DNA from: Chloroflexota bacterium
Lineage (GTDB): Bacteria > Chloroflexota > Anaerolineae > Aggregatilineales > J027
Reading direction: 5' to 3'
Assembly (NCBI GenBank): GCA_003697365.1
Contig: RFGP01000056.1
Span: forward strand, 463-64,462
Length of the DNA stretch: 64,000 nucleotides
The notes beneath the pieces were generated by a model. The model worked only from the letters and a program-made list of their open reading frames with translations, searched no databases and was not told where the DNA came from. The translations under genes and the position numbers were made by a program. Below are positions 18,619 through 57,750 of the stretch, one piece after another (position 1 is the stretch's first letter; each line of letters begins with the position of its first letter).

Positions 18619-19860
18619 TTAATGTATGGTAAAAAGCAAAACCGTTGTTGTTCCCAAACTTATGCGTGAATAATGTCGCAGCGGAAATGGTGAAAGTGGT
18701 TGAAGTGTTGTTGAATTCACCACTGTATGAAGCGTACTCCCTTGATCAATAATGAAGAAATCACCACTATCATCTTGAATAATATGCGCATGATTGCGTG
18801 AAACGTTACGATCCCCATTAAAGTTCAAATCGCGACTTAAACGGCCAATAGTAAATGGTGATTTCGTAATGGTTACTTCAGTCCCTACCATGCTCTCATC
18901 ACGTGATTGTTCTACCCGTAAATGCCCTGTTGGGCGCTTCACTGAGCCGGGCGAAAAAGTCTCGGCATCATCTAATTCTGAGGATGGAGCAGCATTTGTT
19001 GAGTATCCCGACATACTCGCTTCAGCAAAAGCCGTTGCAAATTCACTCGCCGTTGGATAACGCTCTTTGGGGTCTTTGGCCAGCGCCCGATGAATAACTG
19101 CAGACACTTTTGAGGGTATATCACGTTGTAACAAGTGCACATCTGGCGGGCGAACTTCGCAATGTTGTTGCATTAACTCGTAAGGGCTGCTGTCACTATC
19201 AAAGGGTAACTGCCCTGTTAGCAAGAAAAAAATAAGTATTCCTAAAGCGTATTGATCTGTGGCTGGTGAAAGCGGTTCATCGCGCCATTGTTCTGGTGCC
19301 ATATAAGCAGGTGTTCCCAAAATCATCCCTGCCCCAGTAAGTTTGCTAAGCGAACTGTCAAGTAACTTTACAAGCCCAAAATCAACTAGAAACGCATGAC
19401 CAGAGTCATCAAACATAACATTACTAGGTTTAATATCCCGATGAATAACATTGCGTGCATGAGCATAGTCAAGAGCACCAGCAATTTGTTGTAATAGCCG
19501 CGTGATCTCTTGTAAACTAGCACGAGGCCGCTTACCTAATAAAACTTGTTCGATATGATCAGACAAACTGCCCCCTGATAACAAACGCATAACAACATAG
19601 TTCATTCCATTTTCTGTACCATAGTCATAAATTGGGACAATATGGGGGTGTTCTAAAGAAGCCGATATTTCGGCTTCGCGATGAAACCGCTTCACTTGTT
19701 CCGGGCGATTTGCTTGAGAGTCTGAAAGAATTTTTACAGCGACATATCTCTTCAAACGGGGTTGAAACGCTCGATAAACAACCCCCATGCCACCCTTACC
19801 CAAAAATTCTTCTAGTTCATACTGACCAAGCGTACTACCCACGAGATTTTGAAAAGCCAT
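18619..19860 (-). CDS. Ser/Thr protein kinase with C-terminal FHA domain
   Basis: 'GKGGMGVVYRA', 'VAVKIL', 'HRDIKPSNV', 'DFG', 'APE'. C-terminal FHA: 'FTIGR', 'SRNHAHI'. Confidence 0.85.
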   Translation of the reverse strand: MAFQNLVGSTLGQYELEEFLGKGGMGVVYRAFQPRLKRYVAVKILSDSQANRPEQVKRFHREAEISASLEHPHIVPIYDYGTENGMNYVVMRLLSGGSLSDHIEQVLLGKRPRASLQEITRLLQQIAGALDYAHARNVIHRDIKPSNVMFDDSGHAFLVDFGLVKLLDSSLSKLTGAGMILGTPAYMAPEQWRDEPLSPATDQYALGILIFFLLTGQLPFDSDSSPYELMQQHCEVRPPDVHLLQRDIPSKVSAVIHRALAKDPKERYPTASEFATAFAEASMSGYSTNAAPSSELDDAETFSPGSVKRPTGHLRVEQSRDESMVGTEVTITKSPFTIGRLSRDLNFNGDRNVSRNHAHIIQDDSGDFFIIDQGSTLHTVVNSTTLQPLSPFPLRHYSRISLGTTTVLLFTIH

Positions 19861-19921
19861 TATTTCTAACCAGCCTCAATGCTTAAATGTTGTCTTTAGA
19901 AGTGTACAAAAACTTACCCTG

Positions 19922-20389
19922 TTATGGCAACTCTATAGAATGCATTTCTAGCCAAGGGATGCCATATCCAAAAAGTGCGCGCCCAGCAGTTGCTATTGCA
20001 TGAGTTTGTTGGGAGACATCTTGAAATTCCCACCATGCATCATCATTAGGCAACAGCTTAGCATCAAAAACATGCCACATAACCCATGATAACGTCTTTT
20101 CATCTTGATGTTCATATAAAGTTTTTGCACGTGCTATACGCCCTTGATTACGTAAAAGAGTTATTTGAAAACGAGACACAGGGCTTTGTCGAAATGCTAA
20201 AAGTTGCCATTCAACAAACCCATACACATCTTCTCCTAAATTTTCTAGCGGTTTTTGAAAACGAACAAGTCCACGCTGTTGCTGTAATTGATCTTGTTCT
20301 AAGTTATACCCTGCTGCATTTAATGCCTGACCAACAATAGTTAATATCATTTGCATAAAACGTCCTGTTTCTTCTATATTATAAAACAT
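19922..20389 (-). CDS. hypothetical protein
   Basis: 155-aa ORF between the kinase and the divergent receiver gene. No motif I recognise. Confidence 0.4.
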   Translation of the reverse strand: MFYNIEETGRFMQMILTIVGQALNAAGYNLEQDQLQQQRGLVRFQKPLENLGEDVYGFVEWQLLAFRQSPVSRFQITLLRNQGRIARAKTLYEHQDEKTLSWVMWHVFDAKLLPNDDAWWEFQDVSQQTHAIATAGRALFGYGIPWLEMHSIELP

Positions 20390-20498
20390 CTTGAACTCCT
20401 TAATCTGTATTGTTTAATAGTTGCAAGATAAAGCCTGTCAGTGCTACACTCAATAATGCATTCATGAACTGTTCACTATAACAAGGACGGAGCCCTTA

Positions 20499-20882
20499 AT
20501 GAAGCGCATTTTAGTGGTTGACGATGAAATGGGGGCACGTACCCTCATTGGTATTATGCTAGAACGTGGCGGTTTCGAGGTACTTAAGGCCCAAAATGGC
20601 CGAGAGGCACTTGAAATGTTAGATACAATTGAACCACCGGACATGTTTATTTTAGATGTCATGATGCCAGAAATTGATGGTATTCAATTGTGCCGTATGT
20701 TACGTGAGCGTGATGACACTAAAGCCATACCGATTCTAATCTTATCAGCACGTGGAGACGCTAAAAGTGTAATTCAAGGTATGGAGGCAGGCGCAACTGA
20801 TTATATATTAAAGCCGATCTTCCACCATAATTTAGTCGATAAAGTTCGCAGTTTGCTTAATATGGGAGCAACAGCCGAATAG
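20499..20882 (+). CDS. stand-alone response-regulator receiver (CheY-like)
   Basis: 'ILVVDDE', phospho-acceptor context 'FILDVMMPEIDG', 'ILSA', 'LKP'. Confidence 0.85.
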   Translation: MKRILVVDDEMGARTLIGIMLERGGFEVLKAQNGREALEMLDTIEPPDMFILDVMMPEIDGIQLCRMLRERDDTKAIPILILSARGDAKSVIQGMEAGATDYILKPIFHHNLVDKVRSLLNMGATAE

Positions 20883-20895
20883 GATACGCCCTTAA

Positions 20896-21906
20896 ATGGC
20901 TAAAATTGAAGTTCGTGTGATTGATAGTGCAGGTAATCAAACTTATTTACCGCTTCCCAACGATAGGCCATTAAATGAGCTTATTCCGGCTATTGTGACT
21001 TTGCTCGATCTAAACACTGCTTTGTCATATCGCATTTTTGCTCCACGCTTTCAGCGGGTTTTGATCGGCACACAGAGCTTATATGCCAATGGCATTCAAG
21101 ATAGCGATACTATTCGGCTTGTTACCCCTCCCCAAACTACACAAGTTGAACTCGAACTTCTTGATGAACCTAGTCCCGGCGCACGTCTAGCACTTCCTCA
21201 ACAAAACATCGTTAAAATCGGGCGCGGTTCTATCAATGACATTGTTATTGCGCACCCTTCCATTAGCCGTGAACATGGCGAGTTTATTTGGCAAGATGGT
21301 ATACATATCTTCCGTGATCTAAACTCAGCCAATGGCAGCATGATTAATAATCAAGTTGTATCAGAACCTACGCCGATTAGTCTTGGCTCAATTTTAACCT
21401 TAGGGGATAGTGTGCGCCTTGTTTATCAAGAAATATCTCCCCACTACGATATTGGTGTTGAGGAAACCAATGCTCAAATAGGTATGGATAGTAGCACAAC
21501 CACCAAACTAAACCCTTTGCCTAGTGGGTTAGTGTTTTTGAGCTATCACCCCAGTGATATGGTTTTAGCCAAGCGCATTGTGCAAGTGTTACGAGAGGCA
21601 AATTATCACGTGTTTTGGGCGGAAGAGATTCCACCGGGCAGCAATTTTCAAGAAGCGTTACGAAACGCTTTACGCTTATCTGATGCCCTAGTAGCAATCT
21701 TAACACCAGCAGCACTTGAAAACAGCAACCTCATCGATCAATGGCATGAGTTCTTCTTAATGCGCCGCCCAATGGTATCACTGGTCTATCAAAAATCAGA
21801 AGACTTGCCACATATTTTCTTAGAACATCCTGTCGTAGAATTCAAAGGAGATGTCAACCGTCTTGCCCAAGAAACAGTTGACACCTTAAAAAATATTATG
21901 TCTTAG
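20896..21906 (+). CDS. beta-grasp (YukD/ubiquitin-like) - FHA - TIR domain protein
   Basis: Residues 1-78 are beta-grasp-like ('KIEVRVIDSAGNQTYLPLPNDRPLNELIPAIV...DSDTIRLV'). FHA core: G109-R110, S123-R-E-H126, N145-G146. C-terminal residues ~211-336 are TIR_2-like ('VFLSYHPSD', 'VAILTPAALENSNLIDQWHEF'), with Glu285 where TIR catalytic Glu sits. Confidence 0.7.
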   Translation: MAKIEVRVIDSAGNQTYLPLPNDRPLNELIPAIVTLLDLNTALSYRIFAPRFQRVLIGTQSLYANGIQDSDTIRLVTPPQTTQVELELLDEPSPGARLALPQQNIVKIGRGSINDIVIAHPSISREHGEFIWQDGIHIFRDLNSANGSMINNQVVSEPTPISLGSILTLGDSVRLVYQEISPHYDIGVEETNAQIGMDSSTTTKLNPLPSGLVFLSYHPSDMVLAKRIVQVLREANYHVFWAEEIPPGSNFQEALRNALRLSDALVAILTPAALENSNLIDQWHEFFLMRRPMVSLVYQKSEDLPHIFLEHPVVEFKGDVNRLAQETVDTLKNIMS

Positions 21907-37017: not shown

Positions 37018-37884
37018 CTACTCCTCTTCATCTAGTGAAGAGGTGTTTGTATCTACTGAGAACCAGCGCTTTGTTTCAGGATCAATTTTCCCTTGTAAAG
37101 CAGAGTGAAAATCAGCAGCAAAAGCTGCAAGATCAGGATAGGCTAGCTCCTTACGATGTGTCAACCCACGTAATAATACTGAGTGAACTAGCGGAGATAA
37201 GCCCTCAGCAGAGGGTTGTTCAACCTTACGAACTTCAGAACGTGGATCGCTAAAAGGCAAACGGCCACCTGTCAAAAGTTGATAGATAAAAGTTGCCAAT
37301 GCAAATATATCAGCAGCCAGCTCTGGTGTAGAGTTAAAGAGACGATCGGTAAAGATATAATGTTCTTGAAGTAATGTTGCCTGTCGAGGAACAAGACCAA
37401 AATCACGAATATGTGCCATAGCTAAATCAGTAATAGTAGGATTACCACCACGATCTACAAGAATATTGGTGGGTTTCAAGCTACCATGTGCAACTTCTTG
37501 ATCATGTAAAAATTGTAGTCCTTCAATAACAGTGTCAATAATCCTAAGATGATGTTTTGGAGGTATGGGCTTTCCTTGAGCGAAAAAATCGCCAATTGAA
37601 GCAGCAGCTAATGGCATCACCACTGCCAGCATCCCACCATCAATATCTGTATCAATAACTTCTAAAATTGGGTGCAATATAGGATGTTGAATACTCGCAG
37701 CAAAATCCAATATTTCAGCAGCAGCCCCCCGATCCATTGCTGACTGAACATCAATTTTATTGAGAACTTTTATGGCAACTTGCTCACTGGTTTGGATAGA
37801 TTGGGCAACAAACACTGTTCCCATATCTCCCTCGCCCAATTTTTGCCTTAGTTGATACTGTCCAATTTGCATAGATAGCTCCAT
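37018..37884 (-). CDS. protein-kinase-fold pseudokinase
   Basis: G-loop 'GEGDMGTV' and 'VAIKVL' are present. The catalytic loop reads 'HGSLKPTN' (HRD Asp replaced by Ser) and DFG reads 'DLA'. ATG lies 2 nt after the FemAB stop (or TTG overlapping it). Confidence 0.65.
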   Translation of the reverse strand: MELSMQIGQYQLRQKLGEGDMGTVFVAQSIQTSEQVAIKVLNKIDVQSAMDRGAAAEILDFAASIQHPILHPILEVIDTDIDGGMLAVVMPLAAASIGDFFAQGKPIPPKHHLRIIDTVIEGLQFLHDQEVAHGSLKPTNILVDRGGNPTITDLAMAHIRDFGLVPRQATLLQEHYIFTDRLFNSTPELAADIFALATFIYQLLTGGRLPFSDPRSEVRKVEQPSAEGLSPLVHSVLLRGLTHRKELAYPDLAAFAADFHSALQGKIDPETKRWFSVDTNTSSLDEEE

Positions 37885-37886
37885 TC

Positions 37887-38960
37887 TCAAGATCGCCAGC
37901 GCAAATATGCACGATATAAATTATAGATCAATGGGTTGTAAACATAGTCCCAAGCGCCAACGGTACGCACTATGCGTCCCCCCCAGCCACGCTTGAATCG
38001 ATAAACCCCCCACAAACCATCATGGCGATTCTCAAATTCAGCTTCTAGAATATGCGGTTCAACATCTGGTATACCCACCATATCGTAGGTATGAGCTCCT
38101 TGTTCGCGTGCCCACAAAATTGCTGCCCACTGTACACCAAAAGAAGCCATACGTTGGCGCTCTTCATTGCTACTTGCACCATAAACATACCAACTCTGCG
38201 TTCCTAATGCAAAAACGAATACACCAGCTAAATCGTGTTCCAGCCCTTGTGCATCTGTATAACTTGCCATCAATAATGTTGCTTTTACAGGACTTTGAGC
38301 CGTAATAAATAAGTCATAAACACGCTCATAATAACGAGGTGTATGTACCCCAAAATCTTGACGCTCTGAAGTCATTGCTAGCAAATGGTTAAAATTAGCC
38401 ACATCCTGACGTGAGCCATGACGAACAGTTACATCATGTTTCTCGCTTTTGCGAATATTGCGGCGTGTACCTTGGTTCATTCGTGCAAGAATGACGGATT
38501 CATCAATAGAATCTCCATCATCTGTTTGTCCATTGATGTCAATAAGAATAGTGCGGGGAGGTTGTACGGTTTGTGGGCTAAGACGAAATCCAAGTGCTTG
38601 TAAAGTTTGTATTGGAACATCATAGCCGGGTTCTATTTTCAGAAAAGCAGCTTTTCTTTGACGTGTCGCTAGATGAATGGCCTTCATCAACGCTTGCACT
38701 TGAAGAGTATCTTGCCAATCAACAAGTGGCCCAAGAGGTATGTAGGCTAATTGGCTGAATTTAGCAACTAGTGGTCGGTATAAGATTTGAGCCCCAGCAA
38801 CAAGCTGGTCATGCTTCACAATACCAACACGCTGGACATCCCAACCAAACTCTGCTTTCAGCTTTCCCCAAGCACTAACTTGAAAGAAGCTAGCACGCAA
38901 ATGAGATGCCACGAAGGCATCCCATTCTTCATCATTAATCTCAAGGCAAATGGTATACAT
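37887..38960 (-). CDS. FemAB-family peptidoglycan interpeptide-bridge aminoacyltransferase
   Basis: 'WDAFV..H..ASFFQVSAWGKLKAEFGW', 'RRNIRKSEK', 'YVYGASS', 'GVYRFKRGWGG' are typical FemX/FemAB blocks. Confidence 0.8.
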   Translation of the reverse strand: MYTICLEINDEEWDAFVASHLRASFFQVSAWGKLKAEFGWDVQRVGIVKHDQLVAGAQILYRPLVAKFSQLAYIPLGPLVDWQDTLQVQALMKAIHLATRQRKAAFLKIEPGYDVPIQTLQALGFRLSPQTVQPPRTILIDINGQTDDGDSIDESVILARMNQGTRRNIRKSEKHDVTVRHGSRQDVANFNHLLAMTSERQDFGVHTPRYYERVYDLFITAQSPVKATLLMASYTDAQGLEHDLAGVFVFALGTQSWYVYGASSNEERQRMASFGVQWAAILWAREQGAHTYDMVGIPDVEPHILEAEFENRHDGLWGVYRFKRGWGGRIVRTVGAWDYVYNPLIYNLYRAYLRWRS

Positions 38961-39030: not shown

Positions 39031-39549
39031 CTAGTAACCTCGCCACTGGCGTTTGCCATAGTGATCAAAAATTAAGCCATCAAGACACTGAAAATCACCC
39101 ACATCTTCACGAGCAGCTGCTACCATGCGATACAGTTCCATGAAACCATGTGGCTTCACCAAAAAGGCATTACATCCTTTTTCAAATGCTTCGCGGATCA
39201 TAGCGCGTTCATCATGCATGGTTGCCATAACAATAACGACATCAGGGAATTTTTGGCGGATGGATTCGAGAATCTCTATACCTGTTCCATCAGGAAGCTG
39301 GCGATCAAGCATCACTAGCTTAATACTATCGCCCAACTCAGACATAATTTCTAATGCACGTTTTCCTGAACCTGCTCCATGTACCTCTAGCTTGGCCTGT
39401 TGTAATAGTCTCACTAAAAAATCTCGATTGGCGGGCTCATCATCAACAACAAGTGCATGAATGTCATTGGGGGGAACAGTCGGTTGAACGCTTGGATCAC
39501 TCATAGAAAGTTCTACTTTAGAGTCGTTTCTAATCCCTACATCAGTCAT
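39031..39549 (-). CDS. response-regulator receiver protein
   Basis: 'ALVVDDEPANR', 'LVMLDRQLPDGTG', 'VMAT', 'LVKP'. ATG overlaps the upstream stop by 8 nt. Confidence 0.8.
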   Translation of the reverse strand: MTDVGIRNDSKVELSMSDPSVQPTVPPNDIHALVVDDEPANRDFLVRLLQQAKLEVHGAGSGKRALEIMSELGDSIKLVMLDRQLPDGTGIEILESIRQKFPDVVIVMATMHDERAMIREAFEKGCNAFLVKPHGFMELYRMVAAAREDVGDFQCLDGLIFDHYGKRQWRGY

Positions 39550-40480
39550 CTTTCACTTCCGTCATATTTTTACTATCAGAGGACTTTATAGATTCCGTTG
39601 CAGTGGCTGTCTTTTCTTCATCAACTTCAGTTGTAGGTTGTTGAAGTGCAGGGGTAGAAGAGATAGTCTCTTCATCAGTCGACGCAAGCTCTTTAGATTC
39701 TTCAGAAGAAGGAGGCTGAGAAGTCGTTGAGTTTTTTTCTACTGTTGCTTCAGAATTTGAGGTTACAGTTGTCCTATCCTTTTCCTCAGAAGTAGGTGAC
39801 ACTGCTTCTTCAGCAGTTGAGGAATCCTTTACATCAGTTTTGTCATCAGGTATAACTGCAGTAGTAGCAGCTGATTCAGCTTCCTTCTTTTCAGAAGGAA
39901 CATCTTGAGCAGAAATAGGTTCAGATTCTACGTTTTTTTCAACCGAGCTCGTACTTGCATCTTCTTGACTTACTTCAGGTTGAGATTCTGCGGCAGCGGT
40001 TGGCTTTTCAACAGAAGGTGCGGTATCAGATGTTGGAGTAACAGCAGCAGATGTTCCCCCTCGAATAACAGAGGGTTCTGCATTTGTAACTTCAATGGGA
40101 GGCACTGGCTCAGGTTTCACATTAGAAGGATCATATTTCGCTAAGATTTGGAGAAAATCAACAATGGGGATAGGCTTTGGCAAATAATCATCACAGCCTG
40201 CTTCAAGAATGCGCTCTTTATCACCGCGCATTGCATATGCTGTTACGGCTACAATAGGCCGTTTATCGCCGCGTGCGCGCAACCGACGAGTCACTTCCAT
40301 GCCATCAAGTTCGCCGTCAAGTTCTATGTCCATCAAAATCAGATCAACTTGCTCATTTTCTAAGGCTTTGAGGGCTTCTACACCATTTTTATAAGAAAGA
40401 ATTGTATGCCCCCCCATGCGCGCCACACGCTCAACTAGGGCTAAATTTACCATGTTGTCTTCAACATACATAATTCGCAT
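39542..40480 (-). CDS. response-regulator receiver with ~190-aa S/T/E/P-rich disordered tail
   Basis: 'IMYVEDN', 'LILMDIELDGELDG', 'VTAY', 'LPKP', followed by a low-complexity tail. Confidence 0.8.
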   Translation of the reverse strand: MRIMYVEDNMVNLALVERVARMGGHTILSYKNGVEALKALENEQVDLILMDIELDGELDGMEVTRRLRARGDKRPIVAVTAYAMRGDKERILEAGCDDYLPKPIPIVDFLQILAKYDPSNVKPEPVPPIEVTNAEPSVIRGGTSAAVTPTSDTAPSVEKPTAAAESQPEVSQEDASTSSVEKNVESEPISAQDVPSEKKEAESAATTAVIPDDKTDVKDSSTAEEAVSPTSEEKDRTTVTSNSEATVEKNSTTSQPPSSEESKELASTDEETISSTPALQQPTTEVDEEKTATATESIKSSDSKNMTEVKDD

Positions 40481-40504
40481 AAAAACTATTTACTCCTCAT
40501 CACT

Positions 40505-42007
40505 TTAAGATGCATGTTCCTCTGCAGTTTCCCATTCAGCATTTGGATCATGCATATAGCGTGGGAATGAAACATAAAACGTTGACCCCTTCCCAACTTC
40601 ACTTTCAAGCCAAATATCACCATTCATCAACGTAAGGAGCTCTTTAGAGATTGCTAATCCTAACCCAGAGCCTTCGCGTTTCATCTTGCGGCCACTTTCA
40701 CCTTGTTGGAAGGCTTGGAATATTGATTCATGGTGTTCAGGAGGAATACCGGGGCCTGTATCTGAAACCGAAACGATCACACGTTCATCTTCTGGTACCA
40801 CCTTGAAGGTAATAGCGCCTTCTTCTGTAAACTTAGCCGCATTACTCAATAAGTTGAGCAATACTTGCCGCACCCGTAATGGATCGCCTAATACCATAGG
40901 CATCTTTTCTGGTGTTTCACGGCGTAACTCGATAGGTTTTGTTGCAATTAAACCAACCCCTGTAGAAAGCAGCCCTTTGAGAATAGGCTCCAAATCAACA
41001 GGTTGAATCTCCACTTCCAAACGCCCCACATCAATTTTGCTCAGGTCAAGAATATCATTAATAATACCAAGCAAATGCCGACCACTGTTGTAGATACGTT
41101 CCAAGTCCTGATGATATTCCTTAGGCAGTGGAACATTATCATACATCATAGGAAAGTTCAGCATTGTCTCACTAAAACCAATAATCGCGTTAAGTGGTGT
41201 TCGTAATTCATGGCTCATATTAGCCAAGAACTGCCCACGAAACTGCTTTGCCAACTCAGCTGCACGCCTTGCCTCGTCAAGCTCTTCGTTAATTTGCTGC
41301 AACTGCATGGTTAAGTTCTTCTGTTTTAGAAGACTTTTTTCAACTTCTGCACGGCTCTCATGCAGTTTTGTAGCCGTTTCACGTTCTTTGCGATAACTCT
41401 CTAATGCCCATTCAGCAATACTAAATAACTCACCGCTTACTTGAGTCACCAACAACGTCGCGACTGCCATTAAAACAAGCCCAAAACCACCTGTTGTCGT
41501 TACAGGTATCTCTCCCCGTAGTATCCAAGCCGGCAAAATCATTGACAAATACATCAAAAATACGAGTAGCACTGTTTCTTTCACTGAAAGCAACATCCCG
41601 ATGATAAAGATAATAAGAATACCAATCATCGGTGCAGCTGTATTTAAATCAGGGCTTTCAGGTATGGTTAAGCTACTCGCAGAAGCTATTAATCCAAGAC
41701 TATAAGCCCATGTTGCTACATGGTAACGATCCGCTTTGAGAAAAAAGCGCGTTGCCAAACTGGCAACAACCGTAAATATTACAGGCAAAACAAGGTCGCT
41801 AGCATCTGCATCACTACTGCTTGCCGCTAAGATAAGCAATAACCATGCCAATATAAGAACAAAAGCAAGTGTCGTCTTCCACAAAGTATCAAGACGATCT
41901 GTACGAATTTCATCAACAAACGTCAATTTAGATTGAGATACATCAATATCAGACTGGGTGGCAGCTGCCTCCACTGCGGCCATAGAGCTAACTAGAGGTC
42001 CTGTCAT
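40505..42007 (-). CDS. membrane sensor histidine kinase
   Basis: About 6 N-terminal TM helices, coiled coil, H-box 'MSHELRTPLNAIIGFSE', 'LLSNAAKFT', 'DTGPGIP', 'GSGLGLAISKEL'. Confidence 0.85.
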   Translation of the reverse strand: MTGPLVSSMAAVEAAATQSDIDVSQSKLTFVDEIRTDRLDTLWKTTLAFVLILAWLLLILAASSSDADASDLVLPVIFTVVASLATRFFLKADRYHVATWAYSLGLIASASSLTIPESPDLNTAAPMIGILIIFIIGMLLSVKETVLLVFLMYLSMILPAWILRGEIPVTTTGGFGLVLMAVATLLVTQVSGELFSIAEWALESYRKERETATKLHESRAEVEKSLLKQKNLTMQLQQINEELDEARRAAELAKQFRGQFLANMSHELRTPLNAIIGFSETMLNFPMMYDNVPLPKEYHQDLERIYNSGRHLLGIINDILDLSKIDVGRLEVEIQPVDLEPILKGLLSTGVGLIATKPIELRRETPEKMPMVLGDPLRVRQVLLNLLSNAAKFTEEGAITFKVVPEDERVIVSVSDTGPGIPPEHHESIFQAFQQGESGRKMKREGSGLGLAISKELLTLMNGDIWLESEVGKGSTFYVSFPRYMHDPNAEWETAEEHAS

Positions 42008-42054
42008 GATCGTTTCACCAATGCGTTAGTATTTTTAAAATTTGGGCACAATTT

Positions 42055-43488
42055 TTATTTAATTATATTGAGAAAACGATGAGCAGGCAAATGTTTTATT
42101 ACTTCTAGTTGCAGCAGACTTACATCTGTTTTTTGTAATGTTGCATTGCTTACAATAATATGATTAGGTTGTGTGTGTTGATGCATATGTAGTAGCTCAT
42201 TTAAAGCTGCCCCAGCCATTTCAACCATACGCAAACTATCACCGCGCACAACAATAGTGCCTGTATGTACCGCCATACGATAAGGAACATCGCTCACTTC
42301 TTTTAATTGCTGAACAATTTCTAGAATCTGCATTACATTCGTAGATTCCATATTAAATGCTGCGATAAGCCCATCGGAAAGAAGCGGTTGAATTAATGCT
42401 CCTTTCGCTTGTAATGTTTTCATGAGGTTTTCGATACGCTGTGTCAGAGCATTTAATAAAGCGGTAGGATCAGCTACATTAATGTCATATCCCGTTAATT
42501 GTAAGCTAACTAAAATTGCATCTATACGATCAGCAGTTATGTTGCTAGCCGATAAGCGATAACGAGATAGCTCAGCAAAATTTGTCGCGTTTTCAATCGC
42601 AATCGCAGCATAATCTGATAATGCGCTGAGCATCGCAGCATCTTGTTTGCGAAATGGTCGCGATTCAGTCGAATAGTTACTGACAAGCAACACACCAATA
42701 ATACGAGACTGTCCGATCACCATAGGTGTGACTAATACAGCATAAGGACGATCACCGTCTGCTACAATAGCATCAATTTCCGCACGGCTCAAAACGAAGG
42801 GTCTACCTGTTTCTAATGCTTTTTGCGCAAATCGATTTTTCTGAGGTTGATTGACTGCATAAATTTGTGGGTCTTGGGGTGATTTAATAGCACGCGCAAT
42901 CAAAGTATCGTTTTGAACTAAGAATAAGCTGCCGGCTTCGCTCCCTGTAATATCTACAGCAGCACGCAGAATTCGTGGCAACAAATCATCTAATTTTGTT
43001 AATGATGTCACGCTCTTGCCAACTTGATATAGCATATTCAGCTCACGAATACGCTGATTCATTTCGCTATTTGCGGCAAGTAATCGCTCAGTAAGAGCTT
43101 CTTTTTCACGACGCAAGCGCACTTCAGATAAGGCCCGTGTGATAACTTCAGTCATTTCTTCAACTGAAAATGGCTTTTTAACGTAATCTCTTACCCCTTT
43201 ACGATAAACTTCAACGGCGATCTCTTCACTGCCATGAAACGTCATCAACACCACTGGCACATCGATCTCTTCAGCTTTCATCGCATCTAGCACTTCGAGA
43301 CCGCCCATTTTGGGCATCTGAAGATCAAGCAAGACCAAATCCACCGATTGTTGACGCAAAATTTCCATTGCTTCCAAACCATTGCGAGCAACAAGCGGTT
43401 CAAATTGATTAGGTTGCATAATGTATTCAATAATAAATTCACGATTTTCGCGTCCATCATCACAGATGAGAATACGTTCGCCAGCCAA
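42055..43488 (-). CDS. receiver - GAF - cyclase-homology-like (partly degenerate) protein
   Basis: REC: 'ILICDDG', 'LVLLDLQMPKMGG', 'KKPF'. Central GAF-like block. C-terminal block 'ILVSLQLTGY...LLSDGLIAAF...RMAVHTGTIVV...GAALNELLH' aligns by eye to the class III cyclase core, with Gln at the first metal-Asp position. Confidence 0.65.
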   Translation of the reverse strand: MAGERILICDDGRENREFIIEYIMQPNQFEPLVARNGLEAMEILRQQSVDLVLLDLQMPKMGGLEVLDAMKAEEIDVPVVLMTFHGSEEIAVEVYRKGVRDYVKKPFSVEEMTEVITRALSEVRLRREKEALTERLLAANSEMNQRIRELNMLYQVGKSVTSLTKLDDLLPRILRAAVDITGSEAGSLFLVQNDTLIARAIKSPQDPQIYAVNQPQKNRFAQKALETGRPFVLSRAEIDAIVADGDRPYAVLVTPMVIGQSRIIGVLLVSNYSTESRPFRKQDAAMLSALSDYAAIAIENATNFAELSRYRLSASNITADRIDAILVSLQLTGYDINVADPTALLNALTQRIENLMKTLQAKGALIQPLLSDGLIAAFNMESTNVMQILEIVQQLKEVSDVPYRMAVHTGTIVVRGDSLRMVEMAGAALNELLHMHQHTQPNHIIVSNATLQKTDVSLLQLEVIKHLPAHRFLNIIK

Positions 43489-47158: not shown

Positions 47159-47575
47159 GTGGCATCATGGATGCTTGTTGAAGATGAGGAAGATATTCGC
47201 AATATTGTTAAAGTGATGTTCCAAGTTTGGGGTTATCAAGTCATCGAATTTTCTAATGGGCATGATGCCGTGAAATTTATCGAAGACGTTGATGCGGGCA
47301 GATATGAGGGAGAACTTCCTGAATTATTGTTGAGTGATATTCGGATGCCCGGCCCAAATGGCAATGAAATTGCTCATCGGATACGTCAATCAGAAAAGCT
47401 CAAAGAAATTCCAGTCATACTCATGACGGCATTCCAATTATCCGAAAGTGAACAAAGTGCTTTTCGTACAAATGACGGTGTAAACCGCATTATATTCAAA
47501 CCATTGCCAGACTTTGACAAGTTCAATCAAATGATCATGGAAGTCGTCAACGGTACATACAAACCGCCATTCTAA
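47159..47575 (+). CDS. stand-alone receiver-domain protein (paralog A)
   Basis: 'WMLVEDEEDI', 'LLLSDIRMPGPNG', 'LMTA', 'FKPLP'. GTG start 8 nt after GGAGG. Confidence 0.75.
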   Translation: MASWMLVEDEEDIRNIVKVMFQVWGYQVIEFSNGHDAVKFIEDVDAGRYEGELPELLLSDIRMPGPNGNEIAHRIRQSEKLKEIPVILMTAFQLSESEQSAFRTNDGVNRIIFKPLPDFDKFNQMIMEVVNGTYKPPF

Positions 47576-47596
47576 AATTTTATAGAAAGCACAGCC

Positions 47597-48877
47597 ATGC
47601 AAAACCCACCTTCTTCTCAACCTTTATCTGGTGACACGACCCAACAATTTCGGGGTTTTTTGCGCGTCGTAAATGAGCTGGGCACGGCGACAGATACCCT
47701 TTTTCAACGCATTTATGGCAGCCTAAGTCGCCGCCGTAAAACACTCGTTGATACTGAGGCACTTCGACGTGCACAAGCCCATGCACGCGCATTACAACGC
47801 CGCAGTCGCCAACAAAGTCTAGAACTTGCTCGCTTAACCGCAGCACTAGCGACGTTGGAAGAAGGTGTCATCATGCAAGACCCACAAGGTCGCATTGTCT
47901 TGATGAATGATAGCGCTAAGCAAATGATTGGTTCAATACAGGCCTTCTGGGATGGGCCACTGGGAGAAAAGTTTCGCGCACATCAAGCAGAGCCCATTTC
48001 TTCCTCTGCTCATAGCCATATGGAATTTATTGGAGAGCCTGACAAAATCATTATAGGAGAGCGCACATTAGGAATACGGATGGCCCGTGCGTTCTCAAAT
48101 CGTGGCAATGTTTTGGGAACATTGATGATCATCAAAGAACTATCATCTCAACCTCAACAATCATTACCAGATCGATTAAAAACATCCTTCATCACCCAAA
48201 TGACCCATGAGCTACGCACCCCACTCACCTCTATTAAGGGAATGAGTGATGTCTTACTCAATATGCCAGAAGGCCGTCCCCCCAATCGCCGTTTTTTAGA
48301 AGCAATTGGGCGCAATGTTGCGATTTTAGATCGTATGATTGTTGAACTGCTCGACCTATCTGAAATTGAGGCAAACAGCTTTCAAATCCGACAGGATGAT
48401 ATTCGACTAGATGAACAAGTGTTCGCTGTCATACAAGGCATGGAACCTCGATTAACAAAAGCTAAATTAACCGTAAATATTATGGTTGTTCACCCTGAAA
48501 AACTTCAGATACGAGGGGATGCTCGCCGTTTGCAGTGGGCACTGGGACATTTGATCGAAAATGCCATTCAATATACCTTGCCCGGTGGTGAGATTGTGGT
48601 ACATTTAGGGCGTGTTAGGGATGGGCAACTCTTACTCAAAGTTATTGATACAGGTGTTGGCATTCGCTCTGAGGATTTGCCGCATATATTTGAGCGTTTT
48701 TATCGCGGAGAAGCCCGCACCCCCGATGGCAAAGTCATTGATCCGCGTGGATTAGGACAAGGGCTCTACATTGCTCGCGCTGTTGTAGAAGCTCACGGCG
48801 GTAGCATCAGCGTTGCCAGTACACTATATGAAGGCAGTACATTTACGATTGCACTACCAATTTCAGGATTGGCCTAA
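47597..48877 (+). CDS. cytoplasmic PAS histidine kinase
   Basis: No TM helix. PAS-like 'EEGVIMQDPQGRIVLMNDSAKQMIG'. H-box 'MTHELRTPLTSIKGM', 'LIENAIQYT', 'DTGVGI', 'GLGQGLYIARAVVEAHGG'. Confidence 0.85.
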   Translation: MQNPPSSQPLSGDTTQQFRGFLRVVNELGTATDTLFQRIYGSLSRRRKTLVDTEALRRAQAHARALQRRSRQQSLELARLTAALATLEEGVIMQDPQGRIVLMNDSAKQMIGSIQAFWDGPLGEKFRAHQAEPISSSAHSHMEFIGEPDKIIIGERTLGIRMARAFSNRGNVLGTLMIIKELSSQPQQSLPDRLKTSFITQMTHELRTPLTSIKGMSDVLLNMPEGRPPNRRFLEAIGRNVAILDRMIVELLDLSEIEANSFQIRQDDIRLDEQVFAVIQGMEPRLTKAKLTVNIMVVHPEKLQIRGDARRLQWALGHLIENAIQYTLPGGEIVVHLGRVRDGQLLLKVIDTGVGIRSEDLPHIFERFYRGEARTPDGKVIDPRGLGQGLYIARAVVEAHGGSISVASTLYEGSTFTIALPISGLA

Positions 48878-48948
48878 CTTAAGCATTACTTTTATGATGA
48901 ACCATGTCTTTATGATAAATAATTCAAGGCTTTAGGAGAACGTATATT

Positions 48949-49473
48949 GTGTCAACATGGATGGTAGTAGAAGACGAGCCCGACATCTATGATGTCTTGC
49001 TTGCAATGTTTGAATTATGGGGGATTGAAGGCATAGCTTTTGTCGATGGTGCAGAAGCTATCGCATGGATTGAAGCCGTTGATGAAGAGCGAGTTCATGG
49101 CGATTTGCCAGAGCTAGCAATTTTAGATATTCGATTGCCAGAAGCCAGTGGGCCAGAAGTTGGAAATCGCTTACGTAAGAGCGCAAAACTCAACAACACG
49201 GCCATTGTGCTAATCACCGCTTATCGCCTATCTGCGGAAGATGAACGCGCCGTGATTGAGCAAGCAGGAGCAGATTATCTTATGTATAAGCCATTGCCTG
49301 CTATGCCGGAGCTGCGCGCCATCTTAGATGATGTCGTCTCTAAGCGCCGTAAGCTCAAAGAAAACACCGAAACGTCTAAATCAGAGTCTGCTAACAAAAC
49401 AAAGCCCACATCATCGTTGTCATCATCCGAATCCATTAAAGAATCAGAAAAGAAGCCGCCAGCTAAGCCGTGA
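48949..49473 (+). CDS. stand-alone receiver-domain protein (paralog B) with S/K/E-rich tail
   Basis: 'WMVVEDEPDI', 'LAILDIRLPEASG', 'LITA', 'YKPLP'. Roughly 40-45% identical by eye to the 47159 product. GTG start after AGGAG. Confidence 0.75.
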   Translation: MSTWMVVEDEPDIYDVLLAMFELWGIEGIAFVDGAEAIAWIEAVDEERVHGDLPELAILDIRLPEASGPEVGNRLRKSAKLNNTAIVLITAYRLSAEDERAVIEQAGADYLMYKPLPAMPELRAILDDVVSKRRKLKENTETSKSESANKTKPTSSLSSSESIKESEKKPPAKP

Positions 49474-50603
49474 ACACATTAACATCAACGCAAAATACTG
49501 CCTCCATAATGCAACAAAAAGAAATGCCAGCTTTGCGATTTCAAGGTTGGATTGTTTTCTTAACTTTCTGGATATGCTTTGGAACAATTATTCTGCTCAA
49601 TAGCTTTGTGTTTACATACATCATTGGCGATGGCACCTTCACATATCCTAGTTCTACACGAGATACTGCATATTCAATTATTGCTATTTGGGGAACAGCT
49701 TATGTTGTTGGGATTGTGACCGGCTTAACAGCCAATACACCAACGGTTTCCATTTGGCATGTAATAAGCAGTGTTGTTTTAGGATATTTATTCGCCATTA
49801 CGCTTTATGTGATGATACTTGGGCCATTCCCCAACATACCAACTGATAGCTTTGGTGTTCTACGTGACCTTGTTTCAATAGAGCCTTTGCCCGTTTACTA
49901 TGTCTTCATTTTGATGAGCTTGGTTTTTGGGCCGATTTTGATAGGTGTCGCAACCTATACGGGTTATTTGGTTGCCAATGAATATCTACAATTAAAACTC
50001 AAAGCCGTTCCGAATCTTCAGCCTATTACTATCATTTTTGCCACTATCGCGCCGCTTTCAATTGCATTAATGCTGATCGGAGGGCTAAATGTGTGCGATA
50101 TTGAAGATGGACTCAGTAATCTCAGTGACATATGTAGTTATGAAGATGAACAGGCACTTCTCCGCAGCTATCAGCGCCAAGTCAGAAATGTCAACCAAAC
50201 CCTGCCCTACAATGAACAAGAAACAGTTCCCACCATTCTTATTTTCCATCTCGATTTACTCGTCAATCCTTTATTTCATGCCTTTTTAGCACTGTTTATT
50301 GGAGGCATCATTGGATTGAAGCGCAATGCATCACCTACAGTTCACGCTTTTAATGCAGCAATTGGCACTATGATTTATATAACTTTAGCGCTTATATTGA
50401 ACGAGATATTTAAACCTAGTACGGGAGGATATATAGACTACAGTTTAGTTTATCAAGACCGACTAGGAGACTTAGCTCATCCAAATGCCATTGTGTTCAT
50501 GACCCTTTGGAGTATCCCGCCAATTGTAGCAGGTGCAAGTGCATTTGCGGTCAGCACGCTTAGAACACAACGTGCGACTCATGAAATAGCTACTACTCAA
50601 TAA
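49470..50603 (+). CDS. polytopic membrane protein, function unknown
   Basis: About 8 hydrophobic helices. GTG start overlaps the upstream stop (GTGA). Confidence 0.5.
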   Translation: MNTLTSTQNTASIMQQKEMPALRFQGWIVFLTFWICFGTIILLNSFVFTYIIGDGTFTYPSSTRDTAYSIIAIWGTAYVVGIVTGLTANTPTVSIWHVISSVVLGYLFAITLYVMILGPFPNIPTDSFGVLRDLVSIEPLPVYYVFILMSLVFGPILIGVATYTGYLVANEYLQLKLKAVPNLQPITIIFATIAPLSIALMLIGGLNVCDIEDGLSNLSDICSYEDEQALLRSYQRQVRNVNQTLPYNEQETVPTILIFHLDLLVNPLFHAFLALFIGGIIGLKRNASPTVHAFNAAIGTMIYITLALILNEIFKPSTGGYIDYSLVYQDRLGDLAHPNAIVFMTLWSIPPIVAGASAFAVSTLRTQRATHEIATTQ

Positions 50604-53988: not shown

Positions 53989-54015
53989 GCCTTAGGCTTC
54001 TAGAATAAACCCTTT

Positions 54016-54126
54016 TAGTGCTGGTGCTGCACGCCCCCTAGCGATAGGGGGCACAGCCATAAACAAAAGCCCCGTTGCGATACCTTATAAATAGACATTC
54101 TGGGTATTCAAGCAGCGCCAGCACTA
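54016..54126 (+). other. GC-rich nested stem-loop element in the SBP 3' region (REP-like element or structured RNA)
   Basis: 15-bp outer stem tagtgctggtgctgc (54016-54030) / gcagcgccagcacta (54112-54126) with one G-U pair. It encloses an 8-bp hairpin gcccccta-GCGA-tagggggc (54033-54052) capped by a GNRA loop. Confidence 0.45.
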
Positions 54127-54200
54127 GCACACTCCTCAACAAACTTCTACAATAGAAACAATCAATCTAACAACACAATAACTCAGGATATATTTAGCTC

Positions 54201-56168
54201 ATGCAACGAGTGCTGATTCTTGACAATGAAATTAGTTTTATTGTGCGTTTGCGCAAGGCCCTTGAATCACAAAATTTTGAAGTTAAAACAGCACGTCGCC
54301 CTTCCAATGCATATGAAGAAATCACTGCGGGGCAATATGATATAGCTATCATTGACATTGACTTTGACGAGTTTGAAGCAGTGCTCAAACATCTTCGCAC
54401 ACATCACCCTAAGCTGCCCATAATCCTCTCTGGGCACAGCAAAGAAGATGTAGAAGCTGTACAACATTTTTCTGTTGACGCATACATCAACAAACCCTAT
54501 GTTGCGCGCGATCTCATCACAATTATTGAATGGACATTAGCCCAAGTTGCCCAACACGGGCCTTCAGAAGGTGTCTCTAATAAAAGTGTGACAATTGAAG
54601 AGCCCCCCATTAATGAAGATGCTACCATTGGCGACATGATGACGGCATTATTAACGCCAGACAATGAAAGCGGTGTTGTTGTTCACACGGCTATACCTGA
54701 TACATTACCAGAATCAACATCGCAATTAGAAGAGCGCCTTTTAGATGAACCACCAATCTCGGCAGAAGATTCAGTTGCAAGCCGCGTATTGCGCTTGAGC
54801 CATGATGATAACCAACTTAAAAAATTATTACACTCTTTTGAAGCAGAATTACGAGTTCGTCCGTTGCCTTCTTGGCATAAATTGCCACCATCAGAAGCTC
54901 AAGATAAAGTTATTGCATTATTAGGCGAACTGCCACCTATGGTGTTGCCTCCTATACCAAGTGCTACCCCCACACAGCCGGTAGCATTACCAGAATTAGA
55001 CCTTATTCCTGAAGACCCAACACCATTATCACATCTTTCGATGCGTAGCCAACAACTAAATCATGAATTGTTAGATGCTCTTGCAGAAGCTGAGGACATT
55101 GAAGATAGTCGTCTACAAGCTGTGCTTAGCCAAATACAAGACTCTCAGCAAGAAGAGCCTGTTTTACAGGAAGAATTAGTCCCCACGACTGTCAAAGAAA
55201 TCACACAATCAATGGGCATTGTCTTAGATGAAGAAGATGAATCATCTAGCGAAATAGATGAGGAAATTAATCCAGAAGAGGCAGAATTAACGCTTGTTGC
55301 CCAAGCGGCTTTACAATTAACTCAATTATCTCTAGAAAGCGCCGCAATTGGCACAATGCTCACCTATGATGATCGCATTATTGCAAGCATTGGTGATTTG
55401 TCAAAACCACTTTGGCAAGACTTGGCCGCGCAAGTGATACTTGCTTGGGAACAAAGCGATGGAGGCAACACACGACTGATCTATCGCACCTTAGAGCGAT
55501 ATGGACAAGTATTATTATTTAGCTTGAAGACAACAGATGATTTAATCTTGACGCTCATTTTCAATGCCAACACGCCATTGAAAACCATTCGCCGACAAGC
55601 TAAGCGCATCACGGAAGCACTCGCTAACGTTGAGCCAGATGCACTGTCCGCCGAGCTAGGAACTTCCTATCCTATTACCCCCATTAAGGAAGAACCATCC
55701 GCCGCTACGACCTTGCCAAGTCGCCCAACAGACTTGCGTCCCCCTCAAGACCTTCGGCGTACAACAAATGTTGCTGAAGCTGTTTCCATTACTCGAAAAG
55801 ATGAAAATTATACTGGATATGCACTAGCGTGGCTTATTGAAAACGAAGAAATCGTCCTTCATGATGAGCTTCAACAAGCGTTGGAAACTTGGCTCTATCG
55901 CATAGCAGAAGAAAACTTATGGGAAATCATAGCACTTGATATTCAAGATAAGTGGATCAATCTTCATATTGAAGCGCCAGCCAAAGAAATGCCAAATGTC
56001 ATTGCAGAAACTTTAATGCAACAAACAGCACAAGCTATACGAGACACTTATCCAGCGCTACGAGATGAAACAATACCGATATGGTCAGAAGGGTACAGTA
56101 TCCTAACACCCGGACGATTAATGAGCGAGCGCGAGATAGAACGCTTCATCCGTTATAGCAATAATTAA
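54201..56168 (+). CDS. receiver - acidic/Pro-rich linker - Roadblock/LC7-like - IS200/IS605 TnpA-like (HUH-degenerate) fusion protein
   Basis: REC residues 1-112 ('VLILDNE', 'IAIIDIDFD', 'ILSG', 'INKPY'). Low-complexity residues ~113-360. Roadblock-like residues ~361-476 ('AAIGTMLTYDDRIIASIGDL...LILTLIFNANTPL'). Residues ~535-655 ('YALAWLIENEEIVL', 'WEIIALDIQDKWINLHIEAP', 'IWSEGYSILTPGR..SEREIERFIRY') parallel the Y1 transposase fold. Confidence 0.65.
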   Translation: MQRVLILDNEISFIVRLRKALESQNFEVKTARRPSNAYEEITAGQYDIAIIDIDFDEFEAVLKHLRTHHPKLPIILSGHSKEDVEAVQHFSVDAYINKPYVARDLITIIEWTLAQVAQHGPSEGVSNKSVTIEEPPINEDATIGDMMTALLTPDNESGVVVHTAIPDTLPESTSQLEERLLDEPPISAEDSVASRVLRLSHDDNQLKKLLHSFEAELRVRPLPSWHKLPPSEAQDKVIALLGELPPMVLPPIPSATPTQPVALPELDLIPEDPTPLSHLSMRSQQLNHELLDALAEAEDIEDSRLQAVLSQIQDSQQEEPVLQEELVPTTVKEITQSMGIVLDEEDESSSEIDEEINPEEAELTLVAQAALQLTQLSLESAAIGTMLTYDDRIIASIGDLSKPLWQDLAAQVILAWEQSDGGNTRLIYRTLERYGQVLLFSLKTTDDLILTLIFNANTPLKTIRRQAKRITEALANVEPDALSAELGTSYPITPIKEEPSAATTLPSRPTDLRPPQDLRRTTNVAEAVSITRKDENYTGYALAWLIENEEIVLHDELQQALETWLYRIAEENLWEIIALDIQDKWINLHIEAPAKEMPNVIAETLMQQTAQAIRDTYPALRDETIPIWSEGYSILTPGRLMSEREIERFIRYSNN

Positions 56169-56202
56169 AAAGTGCCTTCATTAAAAATGGTAAGGCACTT
56201 TT
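56168..56202. terminator. bidirectional terminator hairpin between convergent genes
   Basis: 11-bp stem aaaagtgcctt/aaggcactttt with a 13-nt loop. The A/T runs within the arms give U-tails on both strands. Confidence 0.65.
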
Positions 56203-56232
56203 CAAGAATGCAACCAGAACAAACCTCAATCT

Positions 56233-57546
56233 TTAGGGATAAATTCCTCGTGTCATTGTCGCTTGTGCGACGCGATTGATAGCATACATTTGGGCCGCCG
56301 TTCGCATGGTTACATCATGTTTTTCAGCAAATTCAGCAACATTATCGTAGGCTTTGAGCAAAATACGTCGTAACTGTCGGAATACTTCTTCAACGTCCCA
56401 CGAAAACATCTGTAAATCTTGCACCCATTCAAAGTAAGATACTGTAACACCACCCGCGTTGGCCAAAATATCGGGTACTACCGTAATCCCCCGCTCTTGG
56501 AAAATCTCATCTGCTTCAGGAGTTGTTGGGCCGTTAGCCCCCTCAACAATCAGCTTAGCCTTAATCTTATGAGCATTTTCTTCAGTGAGTTGATCTTCTA
56601 GGGCAGCAGGAATTAGAACATCACATTCAAGCTCTAGGAGCTCTTGATTTGTTACGAAATCAACATCATTGTGTTCATTGGCATAATCTTTGAGAGTTGG
56701 CATTGGACGACGTTTTTGGCGAGTATACTCAAACAGTTTTTGAATATCTAAGCCTTCAGGGTTATAGACACCACCACTAATATCGCTAATCCCGACAACC
56801 TTATAACCTAATTGTTGAGCATATAAAGCAGCATGAGAACCGACATTACCAAAACCTTGAACAATTAGACGAGTGTTTTGGTTATCAAAAATTCCCTCAC
56901 GGCGTAATGCTTCTTCCATAATGATAATCACACCGCGCCCAGTAGCTTCTTCTCGCCCTTCACTACCTCCAATATTGAGAGGCTTGCCAGTAACTACGGC
57001 TGGAACAGAATAACCAACCGTCATGGAATATGTATCCATCATCCATGCCATTGTTTGAGAATTAGTTCCCATATCTGGGGCAGGAATATCGCCATAAGGG
57101 CTAATAATCGACACCATCTCAGAAGTAAATCGACGTGTTAAACGTTCATTTTCAGTTAAAGATAAGTCACGCGGATCAACAATAACGCCGCCTTTCGCTC
57201 CACCATAAGGCAAACCCACTAGTGCACATTTCCATGTCATCCACATTGCAAGCGCGCGCACTTCATCCAAAGAAACATGTGGGGCATAACGAATTCCGCC
57301 CTTAGAGGGGCCAAGCACAATATTATGATGCACACGGTATCCCGTGAACATCCGCACATCGCCATTATCCATCTTAACAGGAAAATTAAAGGTATATTCG
57401 CGCTTTGGGTAGCGCAGAAATTGCTGCAAACTGTCATCTAGACCCAATCGTGATGCAGCGCGGTCAAACTGTGCAAGAGCCGTTTCATAAGCCTTGCTTG
57501 GTGCATGATTTGGTGATGTCAAAATCACGGTTTGGCTTTGATTCAT
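56233..57546 (-). CDS. gdh: glutamate dehydrogenase
   Basis: 'GPSKGGIRY' catalytic Lys motif, 'GGAKGG', NAD(P) fold 'VQGFGNVG'. ATG 57546 lies 10 nt after AGGAG. Confidence 0.9.
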   Translation of the reverse strand: MNQSQTVILTSPNHAPSKAYETALAQFDRAASRLGLDDSLQQFLRYPKREYTFNFPVKMDNGDVRMFTGYRVHHNIVLGPSKGGIRYAPHVSLDEVRALAMWMTWKCALVGLPYGGAKGGVIVDPRDLSLTENERLTRRFTSEMVSIISPYGDIPAPDMGTNSQTMAWMMDTYSMTVGYSVPAVVTGKPLNIGGSEGREEATGRGVIIIMEEALRREGIFDNQNTRLIVQGFGNVGSHAALYAQQLGYKVVGISDISGGVYNPEGLDIQKLFEYTRQKRRPMPTLKDYANEHNDVDFVTNQELLELECDVLIPAALEDQLTEENAHKIKAKLIVEGANGPTTPEADEIFQERGITVVPDILANAGGVTVSYFEWVQDLQMFSWDVEEVFRQLRRILLKAYDNVAEFAEKHDVTMRTAAQMYAINRVAQATMTRGIYP

Positions 57547-57750
57547 CGAAAAATAGCTCCTCATAAACGTTGGATAATAAACCGATAGCACCCCATTCAC
57601 CTATCACATTAGGTGAATTTTTTGCACGGTATGTCCTAACAAGTATCCTAGCAAATTTTTCTTCTTAAAGACATATAAATTATTTAAAATATTTTAGCTT
57701 TTTAATAAATTTTCAGTTAAATTATAACACATTTTGCTAAAATTCGGAAC

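Follow-up and report, generated by a model that had tools for sequence, protein, structure and literature searches.

The stretch analysed here comprises 64,000 nucleotides (nt) of contig RFGP01000056.1 from a Chloroflexota bacterium and is referred to as the window throughout. At positions 54201..56168 of its plus strand lies an open reading frame (ORF) that starts with ATG and encodes a protein of 655 amino acids (aa). The product joins an N-terminal receiver (REC, aa 1-120, 54201..54560), an acidic, Pro-rich linker (aa 121-360, 54561..55280), a domain with a predicted Roadblock/LC7 (MglB-like) fold (aa 361-478, 55281..55634) and a catalytically dead, acidic domain with the IS200/IS605 TnpA (Y1_Tnp) fold (aa 537-655, 55809..56165, referred to as the Y1-like domain). 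A first-pass annotation made from the letters alone had proposed these four parts, and all of them were recovered: the receiver by Pfam, the linker by its composition, the Roadblock domain by Foldseek and the Y1 fold by both Pfam and Foldseek. The N-terminus of the product lines up with the N-termini of its homologs in the alignment, and the whole protein carries a net charge of -59. A GenBank 'hypothetical protein', CUN55_09545 (P0001) of a Phototrophicales metagenome-assembled genome, also from Chloroflexota, is one residue apart (I470L); codon 470 (55608-55610) is ATC and encodes Ile in the window protein, where P0001 has Leu. PADLOC gave no defence-system match for the gene.

The full-length fusion was seen again in all 21 full-length relatives obtained by a word-index search and in 46 genome loci, and because it recurs in this way the ORF is not a chimera, an alternative that the first-pass annotation had named as a possible refutation. 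Compared with the closest ortholog, the rate of nonsynonymous substitution (dN) was lowest in the Roadblock domain (0.14), intermediate in the Y1-like domain and the receiver (0.27 each) and highest in the linker (0.40). Synonymous substitution (dS) was saturated, so that dN/dS could not be computed for most segments and the usable values are dN and a few ratios (0.12-0.5); for the whole gene dN/dS is 0.12-0.15 where computable. Every segment of the gene is under purifying selection. An exhaustive HMMER scan of cluster representatives (50% identity) with a profile of the Roadblock and Y1-like domains gave 1877 matches at E<=1e-3, of which 482 reached E<=1e-30. This two-domain module was C-terminal in 150/150 best matches, in host proteins of 260-1471 aa, and the pair is the constant core of the family. 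An N-terminal receiver is present in 133 of the 162 sequences analysed, and among the genome loci most of the cases that have none are cut by contig ends. The 46 loci come from GTDB species representatives, one per assembly, and are a lower bound, as that scan used one peptide pattern. All are assigned to Chloroflexota (Anaerolineae, Aggregatilineales, Anaerolineales, Thermoflexus, Phototrophicaceae) except for one bin labelled Planctomycetales. The fusion is a real, conserved signalling protein of Chloroflexota and defines a large undescribed family confined to this phylum, mainly to Anaerolineae. We found no described protein with this combination of receiver, linker, Roadblock domain and dead TnpA fold in the literature, where a survey of HuH proteins discarded unexpectedly long fusion proteins (PMC6006769). 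Relatives carry automated labels only, of the type 'CheY-like / RayT'.

The C-terminal domain is the best defined part of the protein. Pfam Y1_Tnp (PF01797) matches residues 540-651 with E=9.3e-10 (E=2.7e-11 for the domain alone; 39-44 bits at a cutoff of 23), and a phmmer search of the PDB found the Sulfolobus IS200 TnpA 2f4f with E=1.7e-7. In an AlphaFold2 (AF2) model covering residues 358-655 the domain reaches a predicted local distance difference test score (pLDDT) of 92-95 and shows the topology β-α-β-β-α-β-α. Foldseek ranked IS200/IS605 TnpA structures (ISDra2, Sulfolobus IS200, ISHp608) at positions 1-29 of its PDB matches. The best of these was 2fyx (E=5.6e-9, target template modelling (TM) score 0.75), and 2fyx, 2f4f and 2ec2 all lie at E~1e-8 with target TM 0.73-0.75; the RAYT structure 4er8 followed far lower in the ranking (E=9e-5). 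The HMMER alignment reproduced the register read earlier from the letters, with DHIHL of 2f4f placed over DKWINL and KKYI over ERFI. The former HUH triad is thereby W585-I586-N587 (55953..55961), and the position of the catalytic Tyr is taken by F649 (56145..56147). This degeneration extends through the family. The triad most commonly reads Y-V-Y, W-[VI]-N in the clade of the window protein, or variants of these; the first His is retained in 7/162 sequences and both His in none. The column of the catalytic Tyr holds Phe in 147/162, Tyr in 9/162 and Ile or Val in 6/162. The proposed catalytic degeneration of the domain held for the whole family, in which the fusion itself is conserved (46 loci); W-[VI]-N is the triad of the query's clade. 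The Tyr that had been noticed three residues after the Phe is present (Y652). As a displaced catalytic Tyr it was rejected, its column being Phe in 107/162 and Tyr in 45/162. Invariant residues of the structural core are W544, W628, Y632, P593 and R639.

The surface of the domain has changed as well. The Y1-like domain of the query has a net charge of -12 and an isoelectric point (pI) of 4.4; the family median is -9 and pI 4.5, and 99% of the 162 domains are net negative, whereas the aligned parts of two genuine IS200 TnpAs have net charges of +9 and +10 and a pI of 9.6. Among 18 Lys or Arg positions of the 2f4f TnpA, 15 are no longer basic in the query: 3 stay basic and 9 are acidic. Across the family the same positions are basic in 18% of cases. 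The 'KYRR'-type block of TnpA reads E-N-E-E. The HUH metal site, the nucleophilic Tyr and the basic surface have thus all been lost and the fold has been kept, and the catalytic death of the domain is ancient, complete and family-wide.

The domain preceding it is more elusive on the level of sequence. Neither the query nor any of 16 members scanned one by one matched Pfam Robl_LC7 (PF03259) at E<=10. Searching the PDB with a profile of the middle domain was negative as well; a profile-profile comparison of the HHpred type was not made. An AF2 model of residues 358-480, built from a 16-sequence alignment, has a pLDDT of 81, a predicted TM score (pTM) of 0.76 and the topology α-β-β-α-β-β-β-α, which is the Roadblock/LC7 topology with an extra C-terminal helix as in MglB. 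In a Foldseek comparison with the PDB, ranks 1-28 are taken exclusively by structures of MglB or Roadblock/LC7 proteins (E 8e-6 to 8e-5, TM 0.58-0.66), the best being MglB (3t1r, 1j3w, 6hjm) and Roadblock 3kye, with MglB-MglA complexes among them; Rag and LAMTOR roadblock domains come next in the list. The MglB-like segment suggested earlier was hence recovered as a fold and not as a Pfam family. Because no sequence method detects the similarity, we describe the middle domain, which includes the conserved block AALQLTQLSLES, as Roadblock/LC7-like by its predicted fold alone. About 50 residues between the Roadblock and Y1-like domains are modelled with low confidence (pLDDT ~40); they include the motif S-R-P-T-D-L-R-P-P (aa 507-515, 55719..55745), which is partly conserved across the family.

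The linker of 240 aa is as acidic and Pro-rich as first described (Asp and Glu 21%, Lys and Arg 5%, Pro 11%, net charge -38), while its characterisation as Gln-rich was overstated (Gln 5%). Its length is highly variable among homologs, from about 240 to >800 residues, and from this and the composition we infer that it is disordered. Within this otherwise fast-diverging region lie near-invariant short motifs. The first is A-T-I-G-D (aa 141-145, 54621..54635), in which T142 of the T[IV]GD consensus is found in 135/137 sequences with a residue in that column and D145 is conserved too. The second is R-P-L-P-S-W (aa 220-225, 54858..54875): P-L-P-S-W is near-invariant, with W225 in 131/134 sequences having the region, and is present in 38 of the 46 genome loci. 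EPP and TQP are further conserved motifs. We read T[IV]GD and [KR]PLPSW as the likely signature of docking motifs in a disordered region.

At the N-terminus, Pfam Response_reg (PF00072) matches residues 4-109 (E=2.9e-11, 43.9 bits at a cutoff of 30.2), as do PDB receivers. The pocket is complete, with D8 and E10 as acidic residues, D52 as phospho-acceptor, S77 and K98 (signature DEDSK), so that the description as a plausible phospho-accepting receiver stood. A complete D-[DE]-D-S-K pocket characterises the query's clade, and only 29/126 receiver-bearing relatives have the full pocket. The other clades mostly have Asn, His or Thr in place of D8 and Gln or Asn in place of E10 and lack the Lys of position 98, with D52 usually kept; examples of degenerate signatures among long-form members are N-Q-D-S-A and T-N-D-T-V, and in three members (loci L022-L024) the phospho-acceptor itself is Ala (D-D-A-[AC]-K). 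Judging from these signatures, pseudo-receivers occur alongside intact ones within one orthologous family. The control by phosphorylation that had been proposed is plausible in the query's clade only; because the receiver is degenerate in most members, it cannot be the general mechanism of the family.

Taken together, we lean, at slightly better than even confidence, towards a gene for an orphan scaffold or adaptor of the response-regulator type, which would act through protein-protein contacts and neither as a catalyst nor by binding nucleic acids. The characterised relatives of the Roadblock and TnpA folds (MglB and the IS200/IS605 TnpA structures) are obligate homodimers. Because both folds are homodimeric there and each chain carries two such modules, the C-terminal half (Roadblock plus TnpA fold) would form a constitutive dimeric or chain-forming platform for partner proteins. 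The linker motifs would dock either on partners or back onto domains of the same protein, and in the query's clade phosphorylation of D52 by some kinase would alter this docking. A role in protein interaction is favoured because the Y1-like domain is acidic and the basic positions of TnpA are lost. Several points weigh against this scaffold. No partner protein has come to light, and a crude motif screen of the window and of +/-10 kb around each of the 46 loci found no ORF with the G1-G3-G4 motifs of a small GTPase. Dimer formation, docking of the motifs and phosphorylation are each inferred, and most family members, as described, have a degenerate receiver. Nucleic-acid binding is made less likely by the acidic surface, though metal bridging or a small basic patch could still allow it.

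If the Roadblock domain behaves like its best structural matches, the protein might instead be a dedicated regulator of a small GTPase. The domain would then act like MglB, a GTPase-activating protein, or like MglC, on an MglA- or Rup-type GTPase encoded elsewhere, with the receiver and linker in the role of RomR, and would influence polarity, gliding or filament behaviour in Anaerolineae. We consider this unlikely. MglB and MglB-MglA complexes head the structural matches of the middle domain, MglA-family groups 1 and 5 and Rup GTPases are present in Chloroflexi (PMC4316618), and a receiver followed by a Pro-rich, acidic linker parallels the layout of RomR (PMC12719032). The Roadblock assignment, however, is without a sequence-level Robl_LC7 match, and the GTPase screen was negative at all 46 loci and in the window, yet MglB genes typically adjoin their GTPase (PMC4316618). 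The chromosomal context bears on both sides. In relatives at 38-41% protein identity the gene order is kept as SBP_bac_5, family gene, glutamate dehydrogenase (on the minus strand), small lipoprotein, a protein with an oligonucleotide/oligosaccharide-binding (OB) fold and the genes for penicillin-binding protein 2 (PBP2), MreD and MreC, which places the gene of the query's clade a few kb from mreC-mreD-PBP2. This neighbourhood is not kept outside the clade. As a functional clue it was rejected, being shared only where synteny is conserved generally.

The first-pass annotation had favoured a domesticated module that binds single-stranded DNA (ssDNA) or hairpins. On that account the dead TnpA domain would still recognise ssDNA or RNA hairpins and provide a nucleic-acid-binding output under control of phosphorylation, with the hairpin that precedes the gene as one possible target. 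The analysis does not support this, and we regard it as quite improbable. The fold is intact and confidently modelled, and a conserved structured element directly precedes the gene in 7 orthologous loci. In the window this element occupies positions 54015-54127 of the intergenic region 53989-54200 and folds into a three-way structure of ~113 nt with a closing stem of 13-16 bp (54016-54030 / 54112-54126), a minimum free energy (MFE) of -52.9 kcal/mol and z=-6.7; the hairpin 54033-54052 is its inner arm. It occurs once per locus and its core stem is paired in 7/7 loci, with two pairs changed on both sides and a covariation score of 0.19 vs 0.134 in shuffles (5/500). Rfam gave no match for it. 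The element may be an unusual terminator or a 3'-UTR element of the solute-binding protein (SBP) gene. It is limited to one sub-clade, more distant members of the query's clade having plain T-run terminators at its position, whereas the Y1-like domain is found family-wide. A net charge of -12 at pI 4.4 in a domain that is net negative in 99% of the family, with 3/18 basic TnpA positions kept, 9 acidic and the 'KYRR'-type block turned into E-N-E-E, likewise speaks against hairpin recognition, as does the charge of the whole protein.

A more elaborate possibility, to which we give little credence, is that the former HUH cleft, now lined by aromatic residues (Y/W-V-Y/N and the Phe on the former Tyr helix), has been re-purposed as a pocket for the protein's own [KR]PLPSW motif. 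Cleft and motif would form a latch worked by the receiver, and the Roadblock dimer of most family members would combine with a V4R-like neighbour into a Roadblock+V4R platform recalling the eukaryotic Ragulator and TRAPP. If true, a transposase catalytic fold would here for the first time have been exapted to recognise peptides in signalling. The neighbour in question belongs to a cluster seen outside the query's clade, where at 18-23 of the 46 loci the family gene is preceded on the same strand by genes for a MiaB/RimO-like methylthiotransferase, a Cys-cluster protein of ~212 aa and a secreted Big_7/SH3_3/CARDB protein. The three genes lie ~2-4 kb upstream at loci L016, L020, L027-L030, L033, L035-L038, L042, L044, L045, L048 and L050-L052. 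DNA polymerase I lies downstream in 14 loci. Among nine aligned loci the 212-aa protein is 79-91% identical; the adjacent response-regulator genes are far less conserved, with 26-32% identity to the Roadblock+Y1 module of the query. The 212-aa protein, whose gene lies two positions upstream of the family gene, matched Pfam V4R in 9/9 members, with a best E of 8.9e-5 and always below the cutoff, and its PDB profile search was negative. V4R is regarded as a prokaryotic relative of TRAPPC3/Bet3 (PMC10933270). No homolog of the methylthiotransferase, the 212-aa protein or the Big_7/SH3_3/CARDB protein was found in the window, and the query's clade is likewise without the cluster.

The gene is not part of a mobile element, and the protein is neither a Y1 transposase nor a RAYT, since the defining motifs, HUH and Tyr, were looked for and are missing. 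A genuine TnpA query matched this locus only in the window, which makes it single-copy, and no arrays of repetitive extragenic palindromes (REPs), IS-type ends or tnpB were found around the gene; no repeated palindromes flank it, and the hairpin that precedes it has no second copy in the window. We give negligible probability to an origin of the ORF as a chimera of assembly or frameshift, to an IS200 remnant that became fused by chance and is decaying, and to an unusual transposase that is still active. JGI pipelines automatically label relatives 'RayT transposase', and Pfam Y1_Tnp scores above its cutoff. Against this, the same full-length fusion stands in 46 genomes independent of one another and in 482 cluster representatives, dN lies far below dS, no H-u-H exists in 162 members, of which 147 have Phe in the Tyr column, the single-copy gene has neither IS ends, REPs nor tnpB, and the NCBIfam IS200 equivalog NF033573 (transpos_IS200) is missed at 41.4 bits vs a cutoff of 55.

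The gene itself is probably transcribed from its own promoter. A -35-like TAGCACA and a -10-like CTACAAT with a 16-nt spacer (54125..54153, plus strand) adjoin the 3' arm of the structured element, and T[AG]GCACA followed by CTACAAT 16 nt on is kept in 7/7 orthologous upstream regions, CTACAAT being invariant. At the other end, a hairpin extends over the stop codon (56165..56205, inverted repeat I11, 14 bp; MFE -16.8 kcal/mol, z=-4.1) between convergent genes, and probably serves as a terminator in both directions, for this gene and for that of glutamate dehydrogenase (56233-57600, minus strand).

No histidine kinase gene adjoins the 655-aa gene. A signalling cluster at 47159-50603 encodes a REC protein (138 aa), a HisKA/HATPase kinase (426 aa, 47597-48877), a second REC protein (174 aa) and a multi-pass membrane protein (377 aa); its REC-HisKA/HATPase-REC part (47159-49473) lies ~5 kb upstream of the gene. 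Of three relatives examined, two (P0007, P0008) have this cluster in synteny with the gene and the third (P0015) lacks it within 10 kb upstream, which leaves it as a candidate phosphoryl source only. The window is rich in further signalling genes, as judged by eye from the translations. At 39031-43488 two receiver proteins and a membrane histidine kinase (40505-42007) lie together with a receiver protein of 477 aa (42055-43488); a single-domain receiver is found at 20499-20882 within the 18619-21906 region, and two ORFs (18619-19860 and 37018-37890) have Ser/Thr-kinase-like N-termini.

Domestication of IS200/IS605 elements is well known from RNA-guided nucleases (TnpB to Cas12, TldR) and from RAYTs, and RAYTs are still active enzymes. 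We found no precedent in the literature for a signalling protein with a TnpA fold that is catalytically dead and a fixed part of it. Here the catalytic fold of TnpA has lost metal site, nucleophile and basic surface, and purifying selection nevertheless maintains it as a constant domain of such a protein throughout a bacterial lineage. On the scaffold reading this is a case of a transposase fold exapted for a role other than nucleic-acid handling, and the protein would be a response regulator with a new composite type of output. The clade-specific occurrence of intact and degenerate receivers makes the family tractable for studying how receivers control scaffolds with disordered linkers, and the Anaerolineae, a poorly studied group, gain a signalling protein that contains a Roadblock domain.

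Compared with known systems, the Y1-like domain shares with the IS200/IS605 TnpAs (ISDra2 2fyx/2xm3, Sulfolobus IS200 2f4f/2ec2, ISHp608 2a6m/2vih) the β-α-β-β-α-β-α fold, a Pfam similarity of E~1e-10, 23-27% identity and the Trp/Tyr core W544, W628 and Y632. It differs from them by W-I-N (Y-V-Y in most relatives) in place of HUH, by Phe in place of the catalytic Tyr and by an acidic in place of a basic surface, and is the C-terminal part of a 655-aa signalling protein whose gene is single-copy, syntenic and not mobile. RAYT/TnpA-REP proteins (4er8) are likewise host-domesticated, single-copy, chromosomal relatives of IS200 TnpA, but they retain HUH and Tyr and act on flanking REP hairpins, whereas the query has lost both motifs and has no REP arrays; its structural match to RAYT is also much weaker than that to IS200-type TnpA (E=9e-5 vs 5.6e-9). 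With MglB, MglC and other Roadblock/LC7 proteins (MglB of T. thermophilus and M. xanthus, 3kye of S. avermitilis) the middle domain shares its predicted fold including the C-terminal helix (TM 0.58-0.66), but no sequence-profile similarity was detected, it is not a stand-alone protein of ~130 aa, and it has no adjoining GTPase gene. The first-pass annotation had known of no signalling protein with this architecture. None was found for the whole, yet a receiver joined to a Roadblock-like output has a precedent in the REC-NitrOD3 response regulators of archaea (Thaumarchaeota), in which a receiver is fused to a Roadblock/LC7-related output (PMC5847659); these are without the long acidic linker and the TnpA-fold domain, and we claim no kinship with the family described here. 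RomR of Myxococcus xanthus consists of a receiver, a Pro-rich linker and a Glu-rich C-terminal region and serves as a polarity scaffold for MglB and MglC, with protein interaction as its output (PMC12719032). As in RomR, the N-terminal receiver of the query is followed by a long Pro-rich, acidic low-complexity region; unlike RomR, whose Roadblock partners MglB and MglC are separate proteins, the query fuses a Roadblock domain and a TnpA fold to it. This likeness is one of design, homology of the linkers being unlikely, and by this analogy the protein most resembles a RomR fused to an MglB/MglC-type Roadblock module.

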